Origin: a virus
Strand: one strand, 5' to 3'
IMG/VR virus record: IMGVR_UViG_3300025093_000019
Location: 1 to 64,000 of that record
DNA length: 64,000 nucleotides
Positions 7,779 to 43,147 of the stretch are shown piece after piece. The translations under genes and the position numbers were made by a program. The notes under the pieces were generated by a model, which did no database searches, had not been told where the DNA came from, and saw only the letters and a program-made list of their open reading frames with translations. The number at the start of each line of letters is the position of its first letter. The stretch's first letter is position 1.

Positions 7779-10700
7779 TTATTCCTCACCTTCCGGGATT
7801 ACCTCCCCTACAGCTTTAACAGTTGAACTAAATGGAACTAACCTGTCTATTTCTTGCCAGCTACCAGTTGCAACTTCCCAATATCTTCCTATTGTTTCAA
7901 GTAGTGGAACACTAACTATAGCATCTGCTATTAAAGATGGCTGCCAAAGCATTAAATCTAAAGCTCCATATTTTAATGTTCTTAGGAATCTTGAGTCTGG
8001 AAGTAAGTTTTGTTTTCCTTTCTTATCGTCATCCCAATCTACTTGTGTCAATCCTGCGTAAATGAAAGACATGATAGCAGCTGATACCGTATCGGCCAGT
8101 AAACGTGATACATTATACTTATCTGTTTTAGACATACTCATCCAGGCTTCTTTTCCATTGTACTTGGCCTTTTTAAGTTCTGTAAACAAAGTTGACATAG
8201 ATCTAACCATGCCTTTTGTCATTCTTTGTTCCCAAACATACTCTCCATCTTTTTTGGTCCATTCACCTTCAACAGGAGAGTACTTCTCAACATCAAAGTA
8301 ATTGTATAATTTATCTGGTAAGTAAGAACGATATTGCATAAACAATCTTCCAACAGTACCTCTTGACAGTCTGGTTTGGGTTAGTGCATCCATTGAACCT
8401 ACTATGTATTTGTCAGCTATTGTTTTAAGCTGTCTTTGCATCATAAGTTCATATCCTCGTGGCATAGCCTCATCTACAGAATTCATAAACCCGTCTTCTA
8501 CAAGTCTATTTTTTATGAACTCTTTCATGGCTTGACCATCTTCACCTTCCCATCTTGGATCTAAGTTCTCATCGTATGCTAATTTACCATTTTTAACTGA
8601 ATAAGCAGCAATTGATCCATCTTTTTGCATAGCGGCAACAGCAGCTAATCCTCTAACATAATAGTCAGTAATCCAGTTCGTCCAGTGCATTGTATGACTA
8701 GTGAATAGATTTTTATCCATTACCTTTTTTCTAGGGTTATGCATAAGATCTCTTTCAGTCATGTCTGCAACTTGGTATTCCTCCATTATAGCTTCAAACA
8801 GTTCTCTACCAGTTTTAGAGGCAAGCATATTTAATGCTTTTTGTGCGTCTTTACGCCCATAAACACCAGAACCACTCATGTCATTAGCAATTGCTGTATT
8901 CATGAATTGGTTTGCATTCATTAAAGCAGATGTCATACCTAGAGGTACGTTTAATCCTAAACTAAATGCTGATGTTACTTGTAATGCTTGATTTACAAAC
9001 TTATCTACATTTACAGGGGCCTCCTTAAATGGAAGATTTAAATTGATATCTGTTGTTTCAGCTTGACCTTTAATAACAGAATTAACATAGCTTGTTAGAT
9101 ATTGAATTGATTTTTCCTGATCACCTTCTAGCTTCATTAATTCTGCATTATGAAGTATAGCTTGACCTCCATTGATAATCGGAAGCAATTCAGATTCAAC
9201 TATTCTTTTTCTATTGCTCGAAGACATCATTAAATTCATGATCATTTCGAGGTTTGTACTTAACGATTCATTAGCAAACTGATCAGTGAGAATGTGACCA
9301 CCAATAGCCTTATCAATACCCATTATACTCATTCTAGTATCAGATCCAAATACATCAGATTGTACTCCAGTTTGACTCATGAATATATCACTCATCTCTG
9401 TAAGTATTTTTTTCTTCTTAGAATCTTTTGATTGCTTTACATTTGCCTCATCATAAAGATCATCCATATTTGAAAGCTGATACATAAACTTCTCATATGC
9501 TTGTTTAGCATTTTTAGTATCCATCTTCATGAGCATTTCATTAACTGACTTGGATATCATAGGAACCATACCTTTTCTCCAAATCTTTTCAAGCTGCTCT
9601 CTAGCATCTTGTTCAGTGTACTTATTTTTGAAGTATCTATTTTGATGGATTAAGTTTTTGATCATCTCTTTTTCTAGAGTGTCAACTACAAACTTACCAA
9701 GTTCTACATCCCCAGGTGCTAATGTTCCATCAGCAATAAGCTTTTTAGTTTCTGGATCATTTTTGTCCCAATGTATTTCACCTGAATTTACTTCTACATC
9801 ATTTCCATTGATGTCTTTTATCATTCTAGTTTTAAATAAAGGCTTGAATTTATCACCAGCTAAATTTTGTAAGAAGTTCCATTTTCTTTGGTCCGGATGC
9901 TTCAAGAAATATCTTTCATCATAAGCTCTAAGTAATGGATTAAATTCATTTTTCTGCCATTTACTAATAGTATCAACATTCTTAGATAAAGTCTGATATG
10001 TTTTTTCTTGAACCCAATTTACTATCTCGTGTTCAATATTATGAGTAGTTGCGGTATAAGATGTTATAAGATTCAAGTCATTTGTACTGATTCTTTCAAA
10101 AGCAACAGGTGTTTTTGTAAGCTGCTTTAAAGTAGCACCTAATAAAGCATACTCTCTATCATCTTTTAAAGACTCTGGATTCTTTTGTTTTTCTAACCTA
10201 AGCATATGCCACTTGACCATTTCAAGAATATCCTCTCTACTTCCAACGCCTGATAGATACTCTTCTATCCTAGAGACAGAACCTTTCATAGTTCTAAACT
10301 CCCAAGAATTAGGATTGTCAGTTGAAAGATCTACTTGTCTTTGCTGATACTCTCTTCTTAAAGAGTACAACCAAGGCTGGTCATAGTCCTCCTCATAAAG
10401 AGTATCATCATTTATTACATCTCTGATTTCAGGAGATAAAGCTTCATACAAAGGCTCAATTTCTCTCATTGCCTTTATATTATCCATATAGTTGTCCATC
10501 AATACATAAGATGATTCCACATCGTTAGAGTGGACACCCATAACTTCAACTAGCTTTATTTTTAGTTCTGGATTTGCCTGCTTCATTGCCATGACTTGTA
10601 GAGTCAAAAGCATTCTTCTCATATCCCCTTCATTGTTACCAAAAGAAACACCTTTTTTCATTGCTTCTTTGTCGTCCATGAAGTTTCTAAAGAGGTTTCC

Positions 10701-30209: not shown

Positions 30210-32066
30210 TTAAGATGAATATAATTCGCCTAGCTGTCTTCTTTCGTCTTCAGTCATTTTCATGTAGTCTGAAAAAGATAAATACCCACTTTTTGGATTG
30301 TTAGGATCTTTTCCTGCCATCATTTTAGCTTTGTCTAAAGATTTATAATCCATGTATGCAATATCCATATCCATAGAAGACTTTTCATTAATCAATCCTT
30401 GATCTCTGTATAGTCCAGCTTCTTCTGCGTCAAATATCTCACGAACATTTCCTGCAATCTTCTCACCTTTGTCTGCTGCAAACGCAGATCTAGCAGCTTC
30501 ATTTTGCATATCTCTTTGCATCTTCTGACCAAGCCAAGTAGAATTGTATTGATCTTCTCTTACTCTGTCTTGATTTAATTGCTGGTTTTGCATTGTCCAT
30601 AAAGAAGACGCTATCTTGTTTTGAGAGTCCATCTGATTTGCACTAATGCCTGTAGTACCAACTGGAGATCCCCCCATTTGCTTATTGATATAGTGAGCCA
30701 ATCTAGCTTGCTTACTTACGTCTGCTTCAGCATCTTGTTTCATTGTCTCATAGTCCATCCTTGTAGATGAAGGACGAACTCGAATTGGATCAGGAAGATC
30801 TTTGTATTGACGACTAAGATTCCAAAGCCCCATCCCTGCATTTGCCAATTGCTCTCTTTGAGTCAAAGCTTCACTTCTCTCCATTAACCCAGCCAAAGCT
30901 TTTTCTTCTGGACTTTGTTCTTCAAATTTAGATGTATCTCTAGGATCTGTTGGATCTTTAAATTCGGCATCTAATTCCGGATCGTATAGTTCATGACCCT
31001 CTGGAAACTTTCCACCTGGATAATTATTACGATTAGTGAATGCATCGTCAGAAAGGCGTAATGGCTGTCCTGTTTTTTCCTCCCATGTTGGAAGAGATGC
31101 AGGCATCTGCATGTGATATGGATCCAAATCTTTACCAACGATATAGTTGATTGGATTATCAGGATCTCTCAAATCGAAACCACGCTTACCAGCTCGTATC
31201 TGTTCCTTTTGACGCTCAATCTCTTCAGGAGATAATCCAGACCATCCGCCTCCAATAGTAGACCAATCAAGATCATCGATATTGTCAGCGTTGTAAACTC
31301 CTGGAATCATGTTTCCTGCAATACTTGGATCTCCAGTTCCCATGGTAGGAGTATTGGCATTTACTCCAGCTGCACCCACTCCTTCTCCTTCAGCTACTTC
31401 TTCTGATGTTGGTGATATTGGTGATGTTGGTGATGTTGAAGTATTTTGATATTGAGCCATTATTGATGGATCCATTTCTAAAAACTGGTATTGACTATTT
31501 CCTTGTAGATATTTAGGCCATTCTCTTCCAGCTAATTTATGAGCACCTTCAACTGCACCATCAGTAAGATCGTTGTCTCCATACATATTTTGTATTAATG
31601 CAGCTACAAACTCTAATGGAACGTCTGTTCCACCACCATTTTGATACGAAGGATACTGATTATTGTTATTCATCATCAGCCCATATAATTTACTATCTAC
31701 CATATCCTTTACTTGTTTAGTGGTTCCACCTTTTACTCTTTTGTTGTATGGAGAATTTGGAGAAAGAGCTTCTGGATCTATTCCCAATTCATTTTGCATT
31801 CTATCAACTTGTTCTTGATTCAGGAAATACTCTTTAGATGAAATATTAATATCCATTCCGGATCCTCCGCCTTGGTTCATGCTAACTTTTTGATTTGGAT
31901 CATAACCTAATGCAGCAACAATCTTTTTAACTGATTCAACATTCTCGTGAGGCACAACATGCCCCGGACCAGCATTCATTTGTTTATCGTCTGCTTTAGG
32001 ATTTCCATTCCCCGGAACAATTCCGTAAGAACCACGTTTAGTCATATTTCCAAATAGAGATCCCAT
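30210..32066 (-). CDS. Putative virion cargo/ejection protein
   Basis: Likely start MGSLFG at 32066 (TAATG overlap); Q/N/M-rich, helical C-terminus, YQNGG and NQGG motifs. Confidence 0.6.
   Translation of the reverse strand: MGSLFGNMTKRGSYGIVPGNGNPKADDKQMNAGPGHVVPHENVESVKKIVAALGYDPNQKVSMNQGGGSGMDINISSKEYFLNQEQVDRMQNELGIDPEALSPNSPYNKRVKGGTTKQVKDMVDSKLYGLMMNNNNQYPSYQNGGGTDVPLEFVAALIQNMYGDNDLTDGAVEGAHKLAGREWPKYLQGNSQYQFLEMDPSIMAQYQNTSTSPTSPISPTSEEVAEGEGVGAAGVNANTPTMGTGDPSIAGNMIPGVYNADNIDDLDWSTIGGGWSGLSPEEIERQKEQIRAGKRGFDLRDPDNPINYIVGKDLDPYHMQMPASLPTWEEKTGQPLRLSDDAFTNRNNYPGGKFPEGHELYDPELDAEFKDPTDPRDTSKFEEQSPEEKALAGLMERSEALTQREQLANAGMGLWNLSRQYKDLPDPIRVRPSSTRMDYETMKQDAEADVSKQARLAHYINKQMGGSPVGTTGISANQMDSQNKIASSLWTMQNQQLNQDRVREDQYNSTWLGQKMQRDMQNEAARSAFAADKGEKIAGNVREIFDAEEAGLYRDQGLINEKSSMDMDIAYMDYKSLDKAKMMAGKDPNNPKSGYLSFSDYMKMTEDERRQLGELYSS
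31404..31438. repeat. 9-bp tandem repeat (about 4 copies) encoding TSP/ISP
   Basis: tgatgttgg tgatattgg tgatgttgg tgatgttg. Confidence 0.7.
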
Positions 32067-33565
32067 TAGCACCAACCTTTTTTAGTCATTCCACCTTTCT
32101 TATACGGCATCTTTCCACCAGACATCATTCCAAGCATATTCTGTTCTTCAAAATTAGGGCTAGAGTTTAGAGAAGGTCTAAACATATTCCCATCAGGCAA
32201 CGGAACTGTAACAGTTGGAATATTACTTCCCGGAGTCTTTTCTTTTGTAAGTCCACCATCTTCAAAAGAAGGAACATTGGCCTCTGCCATAAAATCTTTT
32301 GTTTTTACTCTTTTGAATTGGCCATAGTCAACGCCTTGAGAATCAACATAACCTTGTCTGATTCTTTGATTAACCATTCTTTTAATCTCTCTTGCACCTT
32401 TTCTGTCTCTAGACATTGCCGGCTGGTAGTTTCCTTCAGGACGAGTATCTTTACTATCCCAATATTCACCCCATTCAACTCTTTCAGATCTTGGAACTCT
32501 ATCAGCTGGAGTCATTCCCCCTGCTCGATAGTTCATCATATTAGTTAAGTTATTGTTTTGTTTCATTTTTCCTGGAATTGCTGCACCATCTTTTGCTGAA
32601 TATACACTTCCTTGGTTTGCGTAAACAGAACCTCTTTGTTGTTGTTGATCATGTAAACCTTCAGCTATTTGCTCTTGTCTTACCATTTCTCTTCTTGCAG
32701 AGCGTTTACCTATAAAATGATCTGCAAGCATAAGTCCTGCACCTATAACATCTCCTGATTTAACTTTATCAAAAGCACCTTTAGCTGCATCACCTGTACT
32801 ATTTGCATCTTGTTCTGCTTGCATTTGCTCCAACTGCTGAGTTTCAGTGTTTACAACTTGCTCCATTTGACTCTCTTGACCAGGCATAGGCTCTCCTAAG
32901 TTTTGAGATTGTGCTCCCATTGCAGCAGGAGATCCTAAAACTTTAGGCCCTTGATTTGCACCCAACTCAGGAACAACATTACCTGTTGCTTCAGGAGCTT
33001 GGCCAAAGTTTTCTGGTAATTGTATTTCTGATTGCTCTGCACCCTGAACTGCATTTTGTATGCCTTGAGTGTCAGCATAATTCATTGTCTGTCCAGCATT
33101 TTGAAGTCCTTGACCTGTAAGTTTTCCTAGATAATCAAAAAACTCCGGACTTATTCCGCCCATCTGATAAGAAGGTTTTTTAATCTTTCCTCCTCTAGCA
33201 ACATTCATTGTTTCGGTTGCTGTTTGATTTCCTAAGTACTGATTAGCCGGTGTAGATCTCTGTGCTGTATGGCCTTGGTTTTTGTTTTTTTGCATCATTC
33301 CCATGACACTTTTACCAATTTGAGGAATCATTTTTGACATACCTCCTCCACCACCAGAGCCACCTCCGCCCATCATTCCACCCATCTTGGACATAAGGCC
33401 TCCGCCTCCGCCTCCACCCATGAGTCCACTTAACATTCCACCACCACCGGCTGCTCCACCGGCTGCTCCTGCGGCTCCTGCTCCTGCGGCTCCACCGGCA
33501 GCCCCTGCTGCGGCTCCGCCTGCTAATACTTTTCCTGCTATTGCTGCTATTGCTGGCCAAGGCAT
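32066..33565 (-). CDS. Putative virion cargo/ejection protein with Gly/Ala/Met-rich N-terminus
   Basis: MPWPAIAAIAGKVLAGGAAAGAAGG... low-complexity N-terminus; multiple xxGG motifs; directly downstream of the muzzle gene. Confidence 0.65.
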   Translation of the reverse strand: MPWPAIAAIAGKVLAGGAAAGAAGGAAGAGAAGAAGGAAGGGGMLSGLMGGGGGGGLMSKMGGMMGGGGSGGGGGMSKMIPQIGKSVMGMMQKNKNQGHTAQRSTPANQYLGNQTATETMNVARGGKIKKPSYQMGGISPEFFDYLGKLTGQGLQNAGQTMNYADTQGIQNAVQGAEQSEIQLPENFGQAPEATGNVVPELGANQGPKVLGSPAAMGAQSQNLGEPMPGQESQMEQVVNTETQQLEQMQAEQDANSTGDAAKGAFDKVKSGDVIGAGLMLADHFIGKRSARREMVRQEQIAEGLHDQQQQRGSVYANQGSVYSAKDGAAIPGKMKQNNNLTNMMNYRAGGMTPADRVPRSERVEWGEYWDSKDTRPEGNYQPAMSRDRKGAREIKRMVNQRIRQGYVDSQGVDYGQFKRVKTKDFMAEANVPSFEDGGLTKEKTPGSNIPTVTVPLPDGNMFRPSLNSSPNFEEQNMLGMMSGGKMPYKKGGMTKKGWC

Positions 33566-33577
33566 AATTTCTAATTT

Positions 33578-36500
33578 TTAGTTGTGCGACTGTCTAAAAT
33601 GAGTCAACACTGATTTGATAAAGATACGACTTTTTGTTTTCCATTCTATTCGAATTTTGATCCACCTACCACGGAATCTACTGTCAACGTCGTATATATT
33701 ATTTGTAGGATTTTGTAAGTCTTGAGTTCTTATTATTGGAAGCTTCCATAAATTTTCAGTATATGCAGGATCTCTCCAATAACTAGCTTCTGTTCCTTCT
33801 ATCCAAGGAAAGTGTTCTGATATCTGATGTTGTGTTTCGTAAACAACACGATAAATGTTATCTGAGCTTGTACTTAGTTCTAGATTGTCAAACACCTTTG
33901 TAATATCTGCTGCTTCATTAACTACGAATTCCACAAAACATAAATCCGGATCATCATTGTCAAAGAATGTAGTTGCATTTTCGTTTCCTGCAATTTCATA
34001 GATGTCTTTCAAATAACCAACTGATGTTATAATTGGATCCGGATTCATACTAGGAAATGACAATTTACCAAACGCAAAGAAGTCTTCATTGATTGTAAAC
34101 CTCATTGCTGAATCAGCTGTTCTTTCACCATGGAAAGCTCCTTGAAGTTCATTAAATACTATTGTTCTTCCAACATCTTTTATAGAGCAATCATCTAGTC
34201 TTTCAGGGCTTCCATATATCCAAGTGAAATATATGTCTTGATGTTTTCTATCGTACACACTAGTAATACCAGTTCTACAAACTGGGTTATCTAAAAAGAA
34301 TTCAACACGATCACTTTCGTCATTATTAAACTCACAAAGCTCGTGGAGTGTCGATCGATAACCTTGCATGTCGGACAATACCTCCATTTGCATATTACCT
34401 TTCATTCTCCAAATCTTTCTCTTATTAAAGTCAACACCATATATTGCAATCTCTGTTGAAACAATTGACCACTGATGCTGAGATCCAACATAGTCTGTTA
34501 AGTTCTGATGTTTAGAATCCAGTATATCCCCAGTACCAAGTAATAACTCACCTGTAGATGATCCTTGATTAAGTACAGCTTTTTCGTTTACAAAATGCCT
34601 GTTAACCCCTTCTTCTTGAATAGAAAACAATGCATTATTTAAAACCTGTAGAGATTTTATTTCACCCATTCTATAATCATACTCTTTCAGTGCAGATAAA
34701 TCGATAACACGATATGCATCTAAGAATGATCCTGGTCTATGCTTATTGCTAAACATAATACCAACAGGTTTGTTTTCCGGGAAGAAAGGTACCTCTAAAT
34801 CTATACCATTATAAAACTTGCTTGACAGAACTTTATTATAACCCGGATTAAGCAACTCAGACTCTCTTTCAATGTCTTTTACAGCTTGCTCGTAAACATC
34901 TGCATATGAACCTGGATAAAACTTATTGATGAAATCATCCAATCTCATCTCAGTATTTATTTTGTTTTCAGATATAAAAGAGTAGCAAACACCAAAAGAA
35001 TATAGTCTTTCTCCAATTAAGCCATCAAACAATCCAATGTCTATACCACCAGCAGCTATATTTCCTCCGTCGTCTTTTACTCCTGGTCCATACTTAGGAT
35101 TGTACATTTGCTTGTGCCATGTTCTTTGCAAAAAGCAATCTCCTTTGTAGAATATTTGATCATTAATCAGTCCATTATTAGCTTGAACGTCAGCTATACG
35201 ATAATACTTTGATATCTTAAAGTAAGTTGTTGCTTTTACATCATACAAGTCTGTTATATCAAAACTAGCAGGATCTACACTTGTGTTATACAAGTTAATC
35301 ATTCTATAGTCGTATTGAATGTCTGCATCTATGCCTATATAGCTCATATATGCCGATTCAAGATTAATCAACTCAATAAACTTGGTATCAGCTAAATTTT
35401 CTGCTAAAAAGTAATACATTGAATCGAAATCATTTCTTGATCCTTGATTAAAATAAGATGTATAGCTATTGTTGTTGGCTTGTTCCCATGGTGCTATATT
35501 ATGAACATCATGAAGATATTTTATCCCAGTACTAAAATTATATGTTTGATCTTGATAAAAATAATCCTCTTTACTGGGATCTATATCAGTAAATCTTTGA
35601 AAATCAATTGTTCCAAATGGATAAACTAGTGCTTTTGGTATCCCAAGTGTTTTTACAAAGAAATGATCAGATGAATGAAAGCCCCATTTGCCTTCTACCT
35701 GTTGAGTGTGTCTTTTAATGTGGTTGACAAAAGTGAACACCTGAGTAAACAGGTCACTAAAGTCATACTTTGTTTGATAAGGAAAAGAAGCTATTCTATT
35801 AGGTTGATTTAATATTCCTTTTTCTTCTTCAAACATTGGAACTACATCCTCATTTCTTTTTTCTATTTGTGGATATTCACCAATCAAAAAGTAAAGACCT
35901 CTTGATGAGGCACCATCAGCTGCATTATAGCATGGTAATGTAAATCCTTGATAAAGAAGTGTTTCTTGACGCTCTGCTCTTACAATATAGAATCCGGTTA
36001 CATTATCTAAAATGTATTGTGGTATAGATGCAAAAGCATTTGTAACGTCAAACTGAACACCCATTACATTAATTAAGTTTCCAGAAACTGTTGGAGACAC
36101 GTTGATGTTCGGAAATCTATAAACACCACTTGTGTTTGGCGTACCACCTAGATTCCAATCATCACGACCAGCAATTGGGAATGCCTGTGTCTCTCTTCCG
36201 TTCTTTAAAACATAGACAATGCCATAAGCATACGCTTCACCTCTAAAATATCCAGTTCTATTATAGACATTTATTTCGTTGTTATAGATTCCTACATCTC
36301 CATTTCCATTTCTATGCTGTAACTGCAAAGTAGCATTGTGACTTGGAACAATCAGTTGAGCAAAATTAAATAGATCTGTTATTGCTTCGTCACCATAGTC
36401 TGTAGTATCAAAAAGATTTCCTGCAAAGTATCTGTTCTCTAATTGAGTGTGCGTTAAAGCACCATCATACTGAGGTTTGGTTTTTATTATTTCATCTAAT

Positions 36501-37501
36501 CCAGTTTCAAAAGTTCCTTCGTATCCTGTAATCTCTATATCAAGAGTAGATAAATTTGGATCTATTGAATAAAGCTTATCTATGATTCCATATTCAACTG
36601 TGTCACTAAAGTAGTACATGTAGCCTATCTCTAGATAAGAATATGTTGTATCAATATTTGAATACCTAAGCTTTATACTTTTGTTGGTTTCTTTGCCGCC
36701 TTCATCACCATGATGTCTAATACCTTCAGACAAATAAGTTCCTTGAGTTATTTGTATTGCATTTGTCTCAGTGAAAAAAGAAGTCTTGTCAAAGTTTTCT
36801 GTTGAGTATCTAGCAAAAAATATCCAGTTTCCTGCACGAGTTTTTCCAGCCTGTCCAAGGCCTTGAAAAGAAACATCAGCATGTATATCAGATTCATGCA
36901 AAAGGTTTACTGCATTTGGAAATGAGTTGTCCCAATACCTTCTTTTGAATGATGTACAATTTCCATCTTGATCAAAACCAGTATTGTAAACTCTAACCGG
37001 CAATCCTTTCTGAGCCATATATAAGCTTACAGATCCATCGTAATCCTCTCTTGCAAATATCTCAACTTGATTTTCACAATCAAAACCTAGCAAATCTGTT
37101 CTAAAGTATTGAGATAGTGAGTTCTCATCTCTAGGTGTATTTGGTCCTGTAAAATTAAAGAGTGGGGAATATTGTTTTGCAGTTCCCCATCCCGAGAAAG
37201 AACAATCTTGATTTACCAATGCTAATGGTGCAGGATAGCATCCTATTTCACTTTGACCAGTACTAGGGTTTGTTGATGCTATATAGGCAACACCGTTATA
37301 CTCACAAACTCCAACAGGAACAAAACCATCTTCTAAACTAAATTTTGCTTCGGATCCACCGACATTAGTAAGAACGGCAGTTTTTCCATCAACCTCAATA
37401 TAACGCATGTTTTGGATTCTCCTAGAAGTATCCTTTGGTATGATCAATAAATCAAGATCTCTATTATCTCCTTTATGAAACTCGTTTATACTAGTTGGCA
37501 T
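33578..37501 (-). CDS. Tail stabilisation/muzzle protein (P22 gp10-like, crAss type)
   Basis: 1307 aa; N-terminal NEFHKG...D.D...QNMR, internal YFRGEAYAYGIV, GDCF, GSQHQWS, and C-terminal SRFRGRWIKI; position as in crAss-like tails. Confidence 0.8.
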   Translation of the reverse strand: MPTSINEFHKGDNRDLDLLIIPKDTSRRIQNMRYIEVDGKTAVLTNVGGSEAKFSLEDGFVPVGVCEYNGVAYIASTNPSTGQSEIGCYPAPLALVNQDCSFSGWGTAKQYSPLFNFTGPNTPRDENSLSQYFRTDLLGFDCENQVEIFAREDYDGSVSLYMAQKGLPVRVYNTGFDQDGNCTSFKRRYWDNSFPNAVNLLHESDIHADVSFQGLGQAGKTRAGNWIFFARYSTENFDKTSFFTETNAIQITQGTYLSEGIRHHGDEGGKETNKSIKLRYSNIDTTYSYLEIGYMYYFSDTVEYGIIDKLYSIDPNLSTLDIEITGYEGTFETGLDEIIKTKPQYDGALTHTQLENRYFAGNLFDTTDYGDEAITDLFNFAQLIVPSHNATLQLQHRNGNGDVGIYNNEINVYNRTGYFRGEAYAYGIVYVLKNGRETQAFPIAGRDDWNLGGTPNTSGVYRFPNINVSPTVSGNLINVMGVQFDVTNAFASIPQYILDNVTGFYIVRAERQETLLYQGFTLPCYNAADGASSRGLYFLIGEYPQIEKRNEDVVPMFEEEKGILNQPNRIASFPYQTKYDFSDLFTQVFTFVNHIKRHTQQVEGKWGFHSSDHFFVKTLGIPKALVYPFGTIDFQRFTDIDPSKEDYFYQDQTYNFSTGIKYLHDVHNIAPWEQANNNSYTSYFNQGSRNDFDSMYYFLAENLADTKFIELINLESAYMSYIGIDADIQYDYRMINLYNTSVDPASFDITDLYDVKATTYFKISKYYRIADVQANNGLINDQIFYKGDCFLQRTWHKQMYNPKYGPGVKDDGGNIAAGGIDIGLFDGLIGERLYSFGVCYSFISENKINTEMRLDDFINKFYPGSYADVYEQAVKDIERESELLNPGYNKVLSSKFYNGIDLEVPFFPENKPVGIMFSNKHRPGSFLDAYRVIDLSALKEYDYRMGEIKSLQVLNNALFSIQEEGVNRHFVNEKAVLNQGSSTGELLLGTGDILDSKHQNLTDYVGSQHQWSIVSTEIAIYGVDFNKRKIWRMKGNMQMEVLSDMQGYRSTLHELCEFNNDESDRVEFFLDNPVCRTGITSVYDRKHQDIYFTWIYGSPERLDDCSIKDVGRTIVFNELQGAFHGERTADSAMRFTINEDFFAFGKLSFPSMNPDPIITSVGYLKDIYEIAGNENATTFFDNDDPDLCFVEFVVNEAADITKVFDNLELSTSSDNIYRVVYETQHQISEHFPWIEGTEASYWRDPAYTENLWKLPIIRTQDLQNPTNNIYDVDSRFRGRWIKIRIEWKTKSRIFIKSVLTHFRQSHN

Positions 37502-37512
37502 TTTTTAATAGT

Positions 37513-40500
37513 TTATTTAAATCCAGCACCTCCAAACATTTTTTGCATCTGCATATAGTTTATCAATCCACGTTCACCAGGACTTTGAACTGCATCAGTA
37601 TTTACACTTGCAGACTGTACTTTTTGTTGTTCTGCTGGTTGTTCTTCAACAGGAACTTCTTCTCCCTTGCTTTCTGCAATTGTTTGAGATCCAGCCCTTG
37701 TTGCCGTTTTTTGTGCGGCAACTTTTTCAGCCTGAATAAGAGTAGGAGTGATTAAGCTTCCTGCTGAAATATCATCAATTGATCGACTACCTATTGCAGT
37801 AAATTCGTCAAGTTTTCTTGGTAACAAATACTCTCCAGTATTAAACATGTTTCTTCCTAAAGCGTCTTTAAGACCAGGATTTACAATTTTATTGTCTATT
37901 TGGAGTAATGAGTTTTGCCAATAATTTTGAGGTTGAGAAACCATTTGATTTACATTTATTCTCTGGTTTAAAGGCAAACTTAAATAGTGTTTTCTAAATT
38001 CAGGATTACTCATCATTTCTGCTCTTGACGGAATAGATTTTGTTGCAGCGTCTTCTACAGCTTCTCTTGTAATTCCTGTCGGAAGACTTTTTCCTTTATT
38101 TGCACGAGTCATTAAATTTCCTAAGCTGTACTGAGATGCTGCGGCCTCTGTTAAAGGAGTTGCTTGATACATTAAATTATCTCCATATTGAGATGCGTAT
38201 TTAGCAAGTTCATCATTATTTTTTAATGCTTGTTGCCACATTGCATCAGAAGGATTAAATTGTCCACTAGCTATTCTATCTTTTAATTCTTGTAATGATT
38301 CTTTTCCTGTAAGTCTAACAAGATCTTTTCTTTTAAATAATTGACTAGGTTTAGCAACTCCTCTTAAAACTTGATTTACTCCAAGCTCTTTAGCTGTTGC
38401 ATAACCAAGCATTTTTGACGCTCCTGTAAGTTCACTAGCACCAGTAATACCACCAATAAGGTTAGCACCGGCATATCCTAAATCTTTTAATCCTTCAGCG
38501 TATTCACCTTTGTCAAAATCATCAGCAGCATCACTCATACTAACGCCTGCTTGAGTTGCATAATGTAATGGATTAAATACTTTAAAAGCGTCATTTATCC
38601 ATGACTCTGAATCTCCAGAAATATCATATAGATCTTGAGTAGTTACTCCATATCTGTCTGCAACCTGTTGTGCTTTCTCTGGATCACTAAGCCAAGCTTC
38701 TTGACCAACCATTGCACCTTCTCCTTGCATCCATTGAGATCCTGTTAATATAGGATCATCCATAAATGCTACAACTTGCTGTCCAGCTTTTTTGTACCAT
38801 GGCATATCATCCCATATCTTTTGCTCTTGTGCCTGGAAGTTTTGTATTTTTTTCTGTTGCATTTCTGGTGCGTACATAGCTTGAACCAATGCAACATCGT
38901 CATAATCTCCTGTTTCCGGATTAATAAAATCATCTCTACTCAGCCCTAATTCATCTTCCCACAAAACTCTATTTGTGTAATACTCATTCATTGCACTTCG
39001 AACAAATGCCTGTTGTTCAGCTCTAACTTGTTGGGGTGTTTTAATTTGAAAATCAAATGTATTATCAAAACTGCTATCAACAATGTTTGTCACGTCTGTT
39101 GATTCTGCAACTACAGGCATTGAATCATAACCTAATTCTATATTAGGCTGCTGATCACGTTGCTGCTCTCTTTCAATCCTGTCTGCCTCTTCCAAGAGTT
39201 TAGCACCTTCAATAGTTGGACCTCCAGCATAAGCTTCATCCCTTAGTTGTTGAGCAGTTTTTGAATCGGTTCTAGTAAGTAATGGCGGGGCTGGAGCAGT
39301 GTAGGTTTCTTCACCTGTTTCTTGTTCTTTTTGACGTTGCATAAGATCTCTAGCTGCTCTTTCTGCTGCTAGTTTTCTACTGGCTATTCCTTCAGCACGT
39401 TCACCAAATATTCTTTCAAGACCTTCTTCTGTTCCAAAATTAGATTTTATGAGTTCATTGAATGCACCTGATTTAGTAAAGCCCATATCCATGTACTCTT
39501 GAATCTTTCTCATGCCTCTCTCATCATATTTTGCTTGATGATAGTCATATACAGGCTGGAACATTTCATCTATTCTAGCACGATCTGCACCGGTTATTTC
39601 AGCAAGTTTGTTACCTCTATATCCATGTTGCATTATTCCTTCAGATATGTCAGCAACTTCATAGGCACTCAAGGATCCGTCTTCATTCATTACAGGGAAA
39701 TAATTCATATCCCTATACTCATTGAATATCTGATCCATAAAAGGAACTTCACCAGTATATCCTGATTCGTATTCTGCTAGTTGATCTTTTGTAAATGTAA
39801 TCTTAGGCTTAATTTTACCGCCATCTTGAAAGTTGAACCGAGCTCTTATCCCTGGCTTTATTTTGTTTATTCCTTTTTGATTTTTGCCATCAGCTATATT
39901 GTAAGTTCCAGTTAACCCTACAGAAAATTTAGGGAAGTTTTTTGATATACCTCCGAAAGCTTCTCCTTTCCAATATTTATTTGGCTGATAAGGAATAATA
40001 GCTCCAATATTTCCTTCTAAACCAGATGGAATATGTCCTGCACCCATTAAACCAAAGATTCCTTCTGGATTTGGATTAGCAAACATGTATTTGTACATAT
40101 TACTTTCTTTACCTCCTCCAAACTGGTGATTTAACCCAATGTCTATTGGAGTCCTTTCTTCAGGTAAGTTGGCCTTAGTATTTAAAAGTACATTCTTTAT
40201 ATTCTGTTTTGGAGGATCTGTTGGTCCACCATCTTCCATATAAACTTTACCACCAAACTTCCATCCTTCTTGAGGTTGTTCAAGTTCTGGCTGTTTGCGA
40301 TAATCAACTGTAATTTCTTCTCCTGCTCCAATCTTATCAATTGGCATAATAAAATGCTTGTTACCAATTTTTGTAACCCTAGCATTTGGTGTCTCGGAAT
40401 GATTATAGTTTTGTCCTAAATCTGTTGTTGGCCAATTGTCCTCATGGGTAGTTCCGAAAAATCCATCATTTACTGATAGATCTTCACCAGCAAACAATCC

Positions 40501-40551
40501 ATTTCCATGAATTTGAGAAGGTCCTACATATGTCTTTGTTCCCTTTTTCAT
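37513..40551 (-). CDS. Multidomain putative virion cargo protein with an N-terminal SET (lysine methyltransferase) domain
   Basis: SQIHGNGLFA...YNHSETPNA...IGAGEEITVDY covers the SET signature motifs; followed by WKFGG, MEDGG and FQDGG motifs and a Gly/Ala hydrophobic segment. Confidence 0.8.
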   Translation of the reverse strand: MKKGTKTYVGPSQIHGNGLFAGEDLSVNDGFFGTTHEDNWPTTDLGQNYNHSETPNARVTKIGNKHFIMPIDKIGAGEEITVDYRKQPELEQPQEGWKFGGKVYMEDGGPTDPPKQNIKNVLLNTKANLPEERTPIDIGLNHQFGGGKESNMYKYMFANPNPEGIFGLMGAGHIPSGLEGNIGAIIPYQPNKYWKGEAFGGISKNFPKFSVGLTGTYNIADGKNQKGINKIKPGIRARFNFQDGGKIKPKITFTKDQLAEYESGYTGEVPFMDQIFNEYRDMNYFPVMNEDGSLSAYEVADISEGIMQHGYRGNKLAEITGADRARIDEMFQPVYDYHQAKYDERGMRKIQEYMDMGFTKSGAFNELIKSNFGTEEGLERIFGERAEGIASRKLAAERAARDLMQRQKEQETGEETYTAPAPPLLTRTDSKTAQQLRDEAYAGGPTIEGAKLLEEADRIEREQQRDQQPNIELGYDSMPVVAESTDVTNIVDSSFDNTFDFQIKTPQQVRAEQQAFVRSAMNEYYTNRVLWEDELGLSRDDFINPETGDYDDVALVQAMYAPEMQQKKIQNFQAQEQKIWDDMPWYKKAGQQVVAFMDDPILTGSQWMQGEGAMVGQEAWLSDPEKAQQVADRYGVTTQDLYDISGDSESWINDAFKVFNPLHYATQAGVSMSDAADDFDKGEYAEGLKDLGYAGANLIGGITGASELTGASKMLGYATAKELGVNQVLRGVAKPSQLFKRKDLVRLTGKESLQELKDRIASGQFNPSDAMWQQALKNNDELAKYASQYGDNLMYQATPLTEAAASQYSLGNLMTRANKGKSLPTGITREAVEDAATKSIPSRAEMMSNPEFRKHYLSLPLNQRINVNQMVSQPQNYWQNSLLQIDNKIVNPGLKDALGRNMFNTGEYLLPRKLDEFTAIGSRSIDDISAGSLITPTLIQAEKVAAQKTATRAGSQTIAESKGEEVPVEEQPAEQQKVQSASVNTDAVQSPGERGLINYMQMQKMFGGAGFK

Positions 40552-41303
40552 TATGCAACATTTCTAGACATTTTTACTTTAGGAACAATGTTATGTAGGA
40601 GCATGCTTATTTCGTTCATGTCGTCACGAGAAACATCTCTAAAGTTTCCTTTTGCTTTTGCAACATAGTGACCTAATCGATCGTTCAAGTACATATATCT
40701 TCCATCTGGAATCAATCCATTCATATAGTCCTCAAAATAAAGTTTAGTCATGCAATACCAAAAGCAAGCTTCTTGATGTCCATCTCTAATCATTGGAAGA
40801 CCTTCGTGATCTACAGCTACTCCTATGTAGTCTATATCAACAGTGTATTCTTGACTGAATGTTCCAGGATCATCAAGGTTAAATCGAAGATAAGCTCCAT
40901 CCCAATCATATTTTGGAACAGAACACTTATTTCTATAAACACTCAAGATCCTATAAATGTTACAAGGTAGATATGCTTTATTATGCTTCACAGTAACTTT
41001 TACATTTCTGTACTTCACAAAAGCATCATACATTGCTATCTCATCTGTCTCACATTCACCACACCATTCCGCAATATCATATATGTCAAACTCTTTACCT
41101 TTGACGTTTCTAGATATTCTTGCGGCTACATTTCTTACAGAGACATATTTACCTGAGTTAATATGCTCTACAGCTTCAGCAGAAAAACTCTTTTGAGAGC
41201 AATCTCCTGTACCGGGAACATTAATATCACAACTGCTTGCAGATTGTCCAGTGACATTTAAGTTTACCGTGTTGGCTGGATTATTGAAACTACTATGACT
41301 CAT
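40551..41303 (-). CDS. Tail tubular/ring protein (P22 gp4-like)
   Basis: Likely start MSHSS at 41303; KAYLPCN..RI...IDY.G..VD.EGLPMI...EACFWY pattern of crAss Ttub-like ring proteins; position fits. Confidence 0.65.
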   Translation of the reverse strand: MSHSSFNNPANTVNLNVTGQSASSCDINVPGTGDCSQKSFSAEAVEHINSGKYVSVRNVAARISRNVKGKEFDIYDIAEWCGECETDEIAMYDAFVKYRNVKVTVKHNKAYLPCNIYRILSVYRNKCSVPKYDWDGAYLRFNLDDPGTFSQEYTVDIDYIGVAVDHEGLPMIRDGHQEACFWYCMTKLYFEDYMNGLIPDGRYMYLNDRLGHYVAKAKGNFRDVSRDDMNEISMLLHNIVPKVKMSRNVA

Positions 41304-41304
41304 A

Positions 41305-41757
41305 CTATTCGTATTTATGACCACTCTTTATTAAATGGTACATTTTTGTTCTTAACCTAGTATTAAATCTTAGACGATAATGCTTCTTGTTTCTTTTTGT
41401 TATTTCTTGGTTTATCTTTAATCTTGGAGTAAAGACTCTACCATCAGATTCAATATCATAAATATAATCAGAACGATTTTCATTTGCTGTATTCGATACT
41501 TTTAAATAACCAAATCCAGGAGATGGAAAAACAAATATTTCATTGTTCTCAATCAGATCTGTAGATAGTTTACTTAAAAAAGAATTGAACACATGTGTTG
41601 CAATACTCTTTGCTTCTGATTCTGTTTTTGTTCCTAATAGATCTTTATATGAACTGAAGGATCTCTTTTTAAAGTTGTCTAAACTTAAAACATCAGACAA
41701 GCTATTTATCTTGTATGCATAAGTAGCATCATCATTGACAAATTGCTCATATCTCAT
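41305..41757 (-). CDS. IHF/HU-like DNA-binding protein (crAss type)
   Basis: Likely start MRYEQF at 41757; helix then LIEN..F.FP..GFGYLKV, an HU/IHF-like pattern; basic C-terminus; located next to the tail tubular gene. Confidence 0.5.
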   Translation of the reverse strand: MRYEQFVNDDATYAYKINSLSDVLSLDNFKKRSFSSYKDLLGTKTESEAKSIATHVFNSFLSKLSTDLIENNEIFVFPSPGFGYLKVSNTANENRSDYIYDIESDGRVFTPRLKINQEITKRNKKHYRLRFNTRLRTKMYHLIKSGHKYE

Positions 41758-41758
41758 A

Positions 41759-42151
41759 TTAATGTTTAAATCGATCGGTAGGCTGAATTTCACTTGCTGT
41801 CTTCCAGATTTGATTTGGATCCGGATGTGCAACTATCTCTGAAAAGTCAGTACCTGGGTTTAAATGTTGATCTCTTCTTGCTACATCAAAGTCTTGGCTT
41901 TCTTTTGGAATCGCTACGTTTGTCTCTACTACATACTTTTGATCTACATAAAATATGTTTCCAGAAACACAAACACCATAGTGTTTAACTATAGCTTTTT
42001 TTGTTCCTCCACATCCACAACCAATTTCTAACCAAACAATCCTATCAAATTCATATTGATGATTTATCTTAAACAGATGACCACCCATGTACAATCTATT
42101 TTGAAAAGTAACATGGCCACATACATCTTCTTGTCTAACGATATTCGGCAT
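41759..42151 (-). CDS. Hypothetical protein (GCGCGG motif)
   Basis: Tightly packed in the operon. Confidence 0.6.
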   Translation of the reverse strand: MPNIVRQEDVCGHVTFQNRLYMGGHLFKINHQYEFDRIVWLEIGCGCGGTKKAIVKHYGVCVSGNIFYVDQKYVVETNVAIPKESQDFDVARRDQHLNPGTDFSEIVAHPDPNQIWKTASEIQPTDRFKH

Positions 42152-42816
42152 TATTCAATTCTACTTGGTTTATTTAATTGATCCGGACTTTCATCTCTAG
42201 CATTATTGCCTTCGTCTGGACCTATCTGGATTGTGCTCATAAACTGCTGTATAGCCAATAACTCTAACTTGTGTATTAAATGTCTAGCAATAGGGAATGG
42301 ATCATCTTCATTACAAATGTCTCTAGGATCTTCAAGAACACCAATCAAACAAACAAATTTCAAACCATGAGTAGGAAGGTTTTTTAATATCGCTTTATCA
42401 TCAACCAGTGTAAATGATGGAGCTTTACCTGTATATTTCTCATGATCAGAATATAAAAACCCTTGGAAGCTTGTTCTTCTAAATGGATTTCTTTTGTCAA
42501 CTGTTCCTAAATACTTAATAGCATCATAGCCAACCGACGATTCTACTTTAGGTATTTTTATGTAATATTCTTTTACTCCAGAGTTATATCCATTACAATG
42601 AATAACATCACACTCTACTTCTAAGCAACACTCAGTTGTATAGTCTTGATCATTTAATTTTCTGAACTTTCTGTATTCTTCTTTCAAAAGCAGAGATCTA
42701 ATATCCCAACACTTATCATAAACAAGTTGAATATCAATGCGTTCATCATCAGTAGGATAATATCCTTTAATTTGATTCCTGATGCTGTAACCTATTTCTG
42801 CTAATGTTTTTGACAT
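42151..42816 (-). CDS. Putative tail ring protein
   Basis: Likely start MSKTL at 42816; pattern EIGYSI...DD.RI....V......R..L...GVLEDP...D.FPI resembles crAss ring proteins. Confidence 0.55.
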   Translation of the reverse strand: MSKTLAEIGYSIRNQIKGYYPTDDERIDIQLVYDKCWDIRSLLLKEEYRKFRKLNDQDYTTECCLEVECDVIHCNGYNSGVKEYYIKIPKVESSVGYDAIKYLGTVDKRNPFRRTSFQGFLYSDHEKYTGKAPSFTLVDDKAILKNLPTHGLKFVCLIGVLEDPRDICNEDDPFPIARHLIHKLELLAIQQFMSTIQIGPDEGNNARDESPDQLNKPSRIE

Positions 42817-42817
42817 C

Positions 42818-43147
42818 TTAAAGCCCAATTAATTTATTCCTCAAAACCCACATTACAGTATTAATGTACGAAGAACTGACACATGAAAAAACCCATAGAA
42901 GATATGTTCTTGCGTCTTTAAAATCTACATTACAATAATATGCTACTAAAAAGTAGATTATCGTACCCCAAAAACTTGACATGCATGCACAACAAACAAT
43001 TACTGGTTTCATCACCCATACAGGTGTGTTGTTTACAAACCAAGATCTAATAGGATATCCGATTCTGCCCCCATCTACGTCGTCAGTAATCTCACGCAGA
43101 CCGAGGCAGAAAATAGATATCATTGTTATTGTCCAAACAATACTCAT
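42818..43147 (-). CDS. Small membrane protein with CxxC (DUF1360-like)
   Basis: Three hydrophobic segments and KPVIVCCACMSSFWG. Confidence 0.55.
   Translation of the reverse strand: MSIVWTITMISIFCLGLREITDDVDGGRIGYPIRSWFVNNTPVWVMKPVIVCCACMSSFWGTIIYFLVAYYCNVDFKDARTYLLWVFSCVSSSYINTVMWVLRNKLIGL

Follow-up and report, generated by a model that had tools for sequence, protein, structure and literature searches.

Why should a protein encoded among the tail genes of a phage begin with what looks like a lysine methyltransferase? The question is raised by a stretch of 64,000 nucleotides (positions 1 to 64,000 of IMG/VR virus record IMGVR_UViG_3300025093_000019; hereafter the window), in which a single open reading frame (ORF) of 1012 amino acids, P0001, occupies positions 37513–40551 of the minus strand. 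A preliminary description of this DNA had proposed a minimal SET domain at the N-terminus of a tail-module cargo protein. Four independent lines of evidence now establish that residues 1–98 of P0001 are a genuine minimal SET domain. With regard to its role, the reading that we favor, and regard as on balance probable, is that of an active minimal SET methyltransferase that would be produced together with the tail proteins, carried in the virion at the front of a protein for cargo or ejection, and put to work in the cytoplasm of the host as infection begins. The enzymatic activity, the packaging, the order of exit and the target in this reading are what we infer.

The identity of the domain was apparent from profile, structure and motif comparisons. 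A Pfam scan of residues 1–110 matched the SET profile (PF00856) with 26 bits (E 1.3e-5; cut-off 22.4), and the score for the whole of P0001, 22.0 bits, fell marginally below the same cut-off; 32 of 35 relatives were matched, the best at 2.8e-17. A profile built from 27 short homologues identified 154 solved SET chains, with MLL1 as the best (5e-13) and the chlorovirus protein vSET at 6.9e-11; vSET was also the best match in the PDB when the SET part of P0001 was used as a single sequence. An AlphaFold2 (AF2) model of residues 1–105 (predicted local distance difference test score, pLDDT, 79; predicted template modelling score, pTM, 0.71) gave 54 Foldseek matches at E<=1e-3, and the top rows were SET domains, led by vSET. 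Superposition of this model by VIA-align resulted in Z 11.1 for MLL1 (root-mean-square deviation, rmsd, 2.6 Å over 93 residues) and Z 10.3 for vSET (rmsd 2.0 Å over 80 residues). The SET profile and fold anticipated in the preliminary description were thus both recovered, and the three motifs that it had named, GxG, NHSxxPN and GEEITVDY, were all located on the minus strand of the ORF, far beyond what chance would produce (Table 1). In the profile alignment, the IHGNGLFA stretch of P0001 pairs with IHGRGLF of MLL1.

Conservation was counted over 157 representatives of 50%-identity clusters. Residues G18, N50, H51, E79, Q92 and Y84, the last at the catalytic position, are invariant in all 157; G16 is present in 143 of the 145 aligned sequences, and both L90 and P93 are near-invariant. 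The invariance of the residues of the S-adenosylmethionine (SAM) pocket and of the catalytic site argues for an active enzyme. Position 82, two residues before the catalytic Tyr, is occupied by a small residue, V or T; its counterpart is Tyr in MLL1 and Ile in vSET. According to the F/Y switch, a small residue at this place should permit multiple methylation, of which the enzymes of this family may thus be capable.

The architecture of the domain is that of a minimal variant. The SET-I insert amounts to ~9 residues, compared with ~40 in MLL1 (profile alignment); since the insert of vSET is also short, the lack of SET-I does not exclude P0001 from the SET domains. Residues 1–110 contain no Cys-rich pre-SET region and no Cys-rich post-SET Zn site, and the latter follows from the complete absence of cysteine; many SET families, though not all, possess such a site. 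Instead, the DY of the catalytic motif is followed by a family-specific tail with the pattern R-x-Q-P-E-L-E-Q-P-x-x-aromatic, whose conservation is as strict as that of the catalytic motifs and which overlays the post-SET range of MLL1. Standalone homologues of ~100 residues stop right past the aromatic residue of this tail, thereby delimiting the domain to residues 1 to ~98. The minimal size and the vSET likeness put forward earlier are consistent with the short insert and with the rank of vSET in the PDB and Foldseek searches. vSET (PBCV-1 A612L; PDB 1n3j, 3kma) and the SET part of P0001 are both virus-encoded, ~100–120 residues in length and devoid of Zn-cluster pre- and post-SET regions, and both possess GEEIT-x-x-Y with a small residue two before the Tyr. 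P0001 differs in being ~20 residues shorter between GxG and NHS and in having its own QPELEQP-aromatic tail. Furthermore, vSET comes from a eukaryotic virus, in which it is a free protein acting on histones, whereas the SET domain of P0001 is fused to a bacteriophage body of ~900 residues and would have a non-histone target. By report, vSET is packaged in the virion and methylates H3K27 of the host.

A SET fold of this kind could in principle have persisted without catalysis, as a module for structure or binding that might, for instance, plug the tail barrel or muzzle or act as an adaptor there. SET-I and post-SET help to form the substrate groove in canonical enzymes, and the lack of both in P0001, together with the strictness with which the QPELEQP tail is maintained, is what such a module might be expected to display. 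However, none of the SAM-pocket and catalytic residues tested varies among representatives as divergent as the 157 examined here, which is unexpected for a pseudoenzyme; the domain is also found in non-structural contexts, and vSET is comparably small yet active. We therefore consider a purely structural role to be very unlikely.

The position of the gene bears on what the enzyme might be used for. The preliminary description had placed it between tail tubular and muzzle genes, and this placement holds: the upstream neighbor matches CrAss_Ring_1 and crAss001 gp43, which carries the annotation "tail tubular", and the downstream neighbor is a homologue of the gp44 muzzle protein. P0001 is thus encoded in the ring/muzzle block, as would be a crAss-type cargo gene. 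Its ATG overlaps the TAA stop of the Ring-1 gene by one base, the A (TAATG), and its own stop is separated from the muzzle gene by an 11-nt spacer. The gene order in crAss001 is gp43 (ring), gp44 (muzzle), gp45 (cargo C1), gp46 (C2) and RNA polymerase (RNAP) (PMC10172136); compared with this order, the SET gene of the window is an insertion between the ring and muzzle genes. P0001 resembles gp45 and gp46 in being large, mostly helical by prediction and encoded in the ring/muzzle part of the tail module.

Examination of related phages revealed that the association of the SET domain with this block is recurrent. Four syntenic sister contigs in IMG/VR (L005–L008), in which the major capsid protein (MCP) is 86–89%, Ring 1 is 68–75% and the muzzle protein is 60–63% identical to that of the window, each keep a SET-headed gene at exactly the P0001 locus. 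The SET domains of the sisters are 50–74% identical to that of P0001, and the tails behind them are unrelated to one another and to any protein of the window genome, being composed of modules common to the SET proteins of other phages; the SET head is hence the constant part and the remainder is mosaic. In the L006 protein, the motif F-N-K-G-G-S-[IL]-Y-x-M-M was observed three times, one copy being at the C-terminus. Among 80 IMG/VR loci, at least 22 from distant crAss-like phages encode an N-terminal-SET protein of 0.9–1.8 kilo-amino acids (kaa) that begins at the stop codon of a muzzle-like gene of 1.5–3.2 kaa; in these loci the SET gene is located downstream of a Ring-2 homologue, and the slot corresponds to the position of the cargo gene gp45 in crAss001. 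In an unrelated podovirus of 42.8 kb from GenBank, the SET gene directly follows a "stabilization protein" gene and is annotated there as vSET-like.

The family extends far beyond these loci. An exhaustive phmmer search over 1.84 billion cluster representatives identified 601 relatives with E<=1e-3, of which 173 had E<=1e-10. Of the 157 representatives, 112 have the SET domain at the N-terminus, 18 at the C-terminus and 11 in an internal position, and 16 consist of SET alone. The QPELEQ-type SET domain was found on at least 118 viral contigs, and on two contigs of metagenome-assembled genomes (MAGs) in a set of 185,579 species genomes; the subfamily is essentially viral and near-absent from cellular genomes. 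The sole two cellular matches were L085, assigned to Aenigmatarchaeota, and L086, assigned to Phycisphaerales, and because both are MAG contigs they may represent mis-binned viral DNA. The PHROGs entry for these phage families reads "unknown function". Domains that share a polypeptide with SET include Phage_lysozyme, Phage tail lysozyme, SLT, Amidase_2, YkuD, PG_binding_1 and ART-PolyVal, which we take as typical signs of a phage protein that is ejected or polyvalent. Polyvalent proteins are long mosaic polypeptides in which unrelated effector modules are combined and delivered with the DNA (Iyer et al., 2017; PMC5512222), and no SET domain is mentioned among these modules in the main text of that paper (whole-word search). 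The likeness lies in those SET-headed relatives that carry ART-PolyVal and cell-wall hydrolases, and in the reshuffling of modules between phages. By the measure of several effector domains in one polypeptide, P0001 itself has SET and unassigned modules, i.e., one recognizable catalytic domain.

Not every member of the family is encoded in a structural block. In the viral contigs L061 (1189–5276) and L079 (7507–10639), the SET domain is internal or C-terminal in proteins of 750–1040 residues whose genes directly follow one for a DNA primase or a DNA methyltransferase, which is a replication or early context and not a virion context; delivery by the virion is thus no property of the domain itself. 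These cases bear on the explanation that the enzyme is active and unpackaged, acting as an intracellular effector or fused to a non-virion protein, and that its gene has come to lie in the structural block by chance. Such an explanation would account for the family members in DNA-metabolism neighborhoods, for the lack of homology between P0001 and known cargo proteins and for the lack of a transmembrane helix. It sits poorly, though, with a location between two tail genes, with stop/start overlap, that is kept in the sisters, with genes that abut a muzzle-like gene in more than 20 other crAss-like contigs and with fusion partners typical of ejected proteins. For these reasons we judge it to be improbable.

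Comparison of P0001 with its closest relatives localized the points at which modules are exchanged. The double-GG linker that follows the SET domain consists of WKFGG (GG at residues 100–101) and MEDGG (GG at residues 108–109), in agreement with the earlier report of two xxGG motifs at this place. In 84 of the 123 representatives with a downstream extension, a GG occurs within 10 residues of EQP, as against ~8% expected from the downstream GG density, and the family consensus at this boundary is E-[DE]-F-x-[KN]-G-G. Inside P0001 the enrichment of [FYMW]xxGG is marginal (3 versus 1.0 expected, p ~0.055), and the strong signal is the family-wide one at the SET boundary. Gains and losses of modules map to the GG sites. 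A Gly-rich module (residues 110–241), for which no Pfam match was obtained and model confidence is low, is found only in P0001 and P0002; it ends in RARFNF followed by QDGG, and P0003 and P0004 precisely lack residues 104–238, which makes the module an optional cassette bounded by GG motifs. P0002–P0005 have both SET and body in common with P0001. In P0006, a different N-terminal module precedes the body and the same Q-x-G-G junction, of which Q242, G244 and G245 are invariant across all six body homologues. The suggestion that modules are swapped at the GG boundary is upheld by the foreign head of P0006, by the missing insert of P0003 and P0004 and by the unrelated tails of the sisters. The head of P0006 (residues 1–120) is a small D-P-K-G-Q-W-N-H-x-G-K module in place of SET; the same module was observed directly after SET in P0018 (residues 95–160), and it is another exchangeable head module. 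The GG motifs may serve as flexible hinges or as processing sites that free the SET module; a scan of 20 ORFs or half-ORFs of the window for a peptidase able to cut at GG gave no Pfam match, though such an enzyme may still exist.

Less can be said of the body. A Pfam scan provided no family assignment for it. The full-length AF2 model, generated from six sequences, has a mean pLDDT of 45, with better-defined regions at residues ~250–410, 510–570 and 800–900; it serves solely for the statement that residues 246–1012 are predicted, at low confidence, to be mostly α-helical. ESM Atlas matches for residues 246–1012 had scores of 0.82–0.84, which is chance level, and were set aside.

The mechanism that we propose for an injected P0001 is as follows. 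The GG-rich linker would join a SAM-dependent lysine methyltransferase to a large, predominantly helical late protein. In the particle, the SET head would sit in or near the tail barrel and would exit first, so reaching the cytoplasm, the sole compartment with SAM, where its substrates as infection starts would be one or several proteins of the host, or phage proteins injected alongside. Nucleoid, RNAP, ribosomal, defence and virion proteins have been proposed as targets, all of which are guesses. The N-terminus of crAss001 gp45 lies in the tail barrel and has been proposed to be the first part to exit, in the direction N to C (PMC10172136). If P0001 leaves the particle in the same manner, an N-terminal SET domain would go deepest into the cell, and the N-terminal placement in 112 of the 157 representatives fits this order of exit. 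A small, metal-free SET domain would also lend itself to being unfolded and refolded on its way along the tail channel. From the comparative context, injection is plausible. A bolder version of this proposal, which we regard as possible but doubtful, is that the virus-restricted family of minimal SET domains, free of both metal site and SET-I insert, provides a leading warhead for ejected phage proteins, which would emerge from the crAss-type tail ahead of everything else and methylate a host protein (such as a defence, nucleoid or transcription/translation factor) before phage expression, and that the conserved aromatic-x-x-GG boundaries would be processing or hinge sites serving for swap and release of modules in the manner of a polyprotein.

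A number of observations weigh against delivery by the virion. The SET fold is pseudoknotted and would therefore need to unfold and refold to traverse the tail channel. Relatives have peptidoglycan hydrolases fused to SET, and these work in the periplasm, a compartment devoid of SAM. The versions of the domain that are internal or C-terminal near primase or DNA methyltransferase genes, and those that stand alone at ~100 residues, indicate that it can work without virion delivery; even at the P0001 locus itself, sister L008 has a bare SET protein of 109 residues with no evident packaging module. The gene of P0001 precedes the muzzle gene, whereas gp45 of crAss001 follows it. In addition, a transmembrane helix is predicted in gp45 but no convincing one was found in P0001 (maximum Kyte-Doolittle 19-mer 0.87), and gp45 lacks any enzymatic domain comparable to the SET domain of P0001. 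Comparison of P0001 with gp45 and gp46 by blastp gave nothing, and hhalign with a body profile gave probabilities of 0.4% and 0.6%; given that cargo proteins are poorly conserved, the missing homology lowers the case for membership in that family, not the analogy to it. No match to whole P0001 was found among PDB sequences, and the body is without similarity to any solved structure. Lastly, tblastn against 50,697 phage records yielded no match for the whole of P0001 and five weak matches for the SET part, none of which was from a cultured phage.

Alternatively, an active SET enzyme might work late, in the producing cell, where its substrates would be lysines in the capsid, tail or cargo proteins of the virion or in its own body, methylated for example for stabilization or protection against proteases; action after injection would then be unnecessary. 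In favor of this, translation of the gene is coupled to that of a late tail gene; SAM is present in the producing cell, so that no transport problem arises; a free SET protein is encoded by L008 at the same late locus; and standalone versions and versions in non-structural contexts exist. What late methylation leaves unexplained is the N-terminal bias of the domain in very large mosaic proteins with ART-PolyVal and cell-wall hydrolases, as well as the recurrent placement at the gp45 position, and no conserved candidate substrate has been identified. This explanation is in our estimation unlikely.

The features of the gene, its neighbors and the sister loci are compiled in Table 1.

Table 1. 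Coordinates of P0001, its modules, neighboring genes and the SET genes of sister contigs (window positions unless a contig is named).
Feature	Position	Strand	Basis
Whole gene P0001, 1012 aa	37513..40551	(-)	ORF reading
Minimal SET domain, aa 1-98, SET-N and SET-C blocks	40258..40551	(-)	Pfam, profile, AF2/Foldseek/VIA-align, conservation
IHGNGLFA, GxG SAM-pocket motif, aa 14-21	40489..40512	(-)	sequence and family alignment
NHSETPN, SAM pocket/pseudoknot motif, aa 50-56	40384..40404	(-)	sequence and family alignment
GEEITVDY, catalytic-Tyr motif (ELxF/YDY type), aa 77-84	40300..40323	(-)	sequence and family alignment
Family-specific tail QPELEQPQEGW, aa 87-97	40261..40293	(-)	family alignment, VIA-align
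Double-GG linker KFGGKVYMEDGG, aa 98-109	40225..40260	(-)	sequence, family count
Optional Gly-rich module, aa 110-241	39829..40224	(-)	comparison with P0002-P0004
QDGG junction, aa 242-245	39817..39828	(-)	body alignment
Conserved body, aa 246-1012, common to P0002-P0006	37516..39816	(-)	alignment, low-confidence model
Upstream neighbor, crAss tail ring protein 1, crAss001 gp43-like	40551..41324	(-)	Pfam CrAss_Ring_1 1.2e-22
Downstream neighbor, muzzle homologue, crAss001 gp44-like	33578..37501	(-)	match 3e-12
CrAss_Ring_2 gene	42151-42828		Pfam
Sister SET-headed gene, 344 aa, tail 244 residues	L005:6674-7708		
Sister SET-headed gene, 708 aa, tail 608 residues	L006:9992-12118		
Sister SET-headed gene, 621 aa, tail 521 residues	L007:9989-11854		
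Sister SET gene, 109 aa, tail 0 residues	L008:7752-8081		

The genome that harbors this locus is 79,289 bp in length with a GC content of 36%, and its last 127 bases are identical to its first 127, an overlap from which it is probably complete and circularly assembled. All structural and cargo genes run along the minus strand; from near 61.2 kb a plus-strand block begins. Matches to PHROG families were obtained for TerL, portal and MCP, and the portal is 23–28% identical to crAss phage portals; judged from its sequence, the genome is that of a distant Crassvirales-like phage (a crAss-like podovirus). The label of one neighboring gene was not confirmed: the product of 41305–41757 (-), which had been called IHF-like and named as a candidate substrate, and which occupies the position of the HU/IHF-like gp42 of crAss001, had no Pfam match, no PDB match by phmmer and no significant BLAST match to gp42, and so gave no HU/IHF signal, and the adjoining ORF of 130 residues at 41759–42151 (-) reached just E 0.26 to gp42. 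The IHF label hence rests only on the place of the gene before Ring 1.

Two further ORFs after the muzzle gene were recorded. The first, at 7779–28268 (-), encodes 6829 residues in one frame, with an SF1 helicase core at residues ~1483–1780 (Pfam AAA_30, Viral_helicase1, UvrD_C_2) and a C-terminus (residues 6631–6749) similar to the RNAP-associated gp49 of crAss001 (E 3e-8); these matches suggest a giant virion protein in which RNAP and helicase are fused. The second, at 32066–33565 (-), encodes 499 residues with eight [FYMW]xxGG motifs versus 1.5 expected (0 of 200 shuffles reached eight), and is the sole ORF of the genome clearly enriched in this motif; no Pfam or PHROG match and no homologue in the sister loci was found for it.

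SET lysine methyltransferases associated with prokaryotes include RomA/LegAS4 of Legionella, NUE of Chlamydia and Go1-SET of Methanosarcina, some of which are delivered effectors; Go1-SET methylates a nucleoid protein. All of these are cellular genes whose products are secreted by type III or type IV secretion systems or act in cis. Unlike them, the subfamily of P0001 is almost absent from cellular genomes and is found on phage structural-module proteins. Virus-encoded SET domains are already known from vSET, and a few phage proteins have been labelled SET by database annotators. A full-text literature search of incomplete coverage turned up no publication that deals with SET domains in the virion or cargo proteins of phages, which is no proof of novelty. 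Enzymes known to be injected by phages include RNA polymerases, ADP-ribosyltransferases, cell-wall hydrolases and anti-restriction proteins, and we know of no established role of protein lysine methylation as a phage weapon.

The analysis defines a large, almost virus-confined family of minimal SET domains that are mostly N-terminal on mosaic structural-module proteins and that recur around the muzzle gene of crAss-like phages. At ~98 residues and without a metal site, the domain should be easy to express and test. If delivery by the virion is true, it would represent new chemistry in the first seconds of infection and would offer a way into the study of Crassvirales cargo proteins, which are poorly understood.

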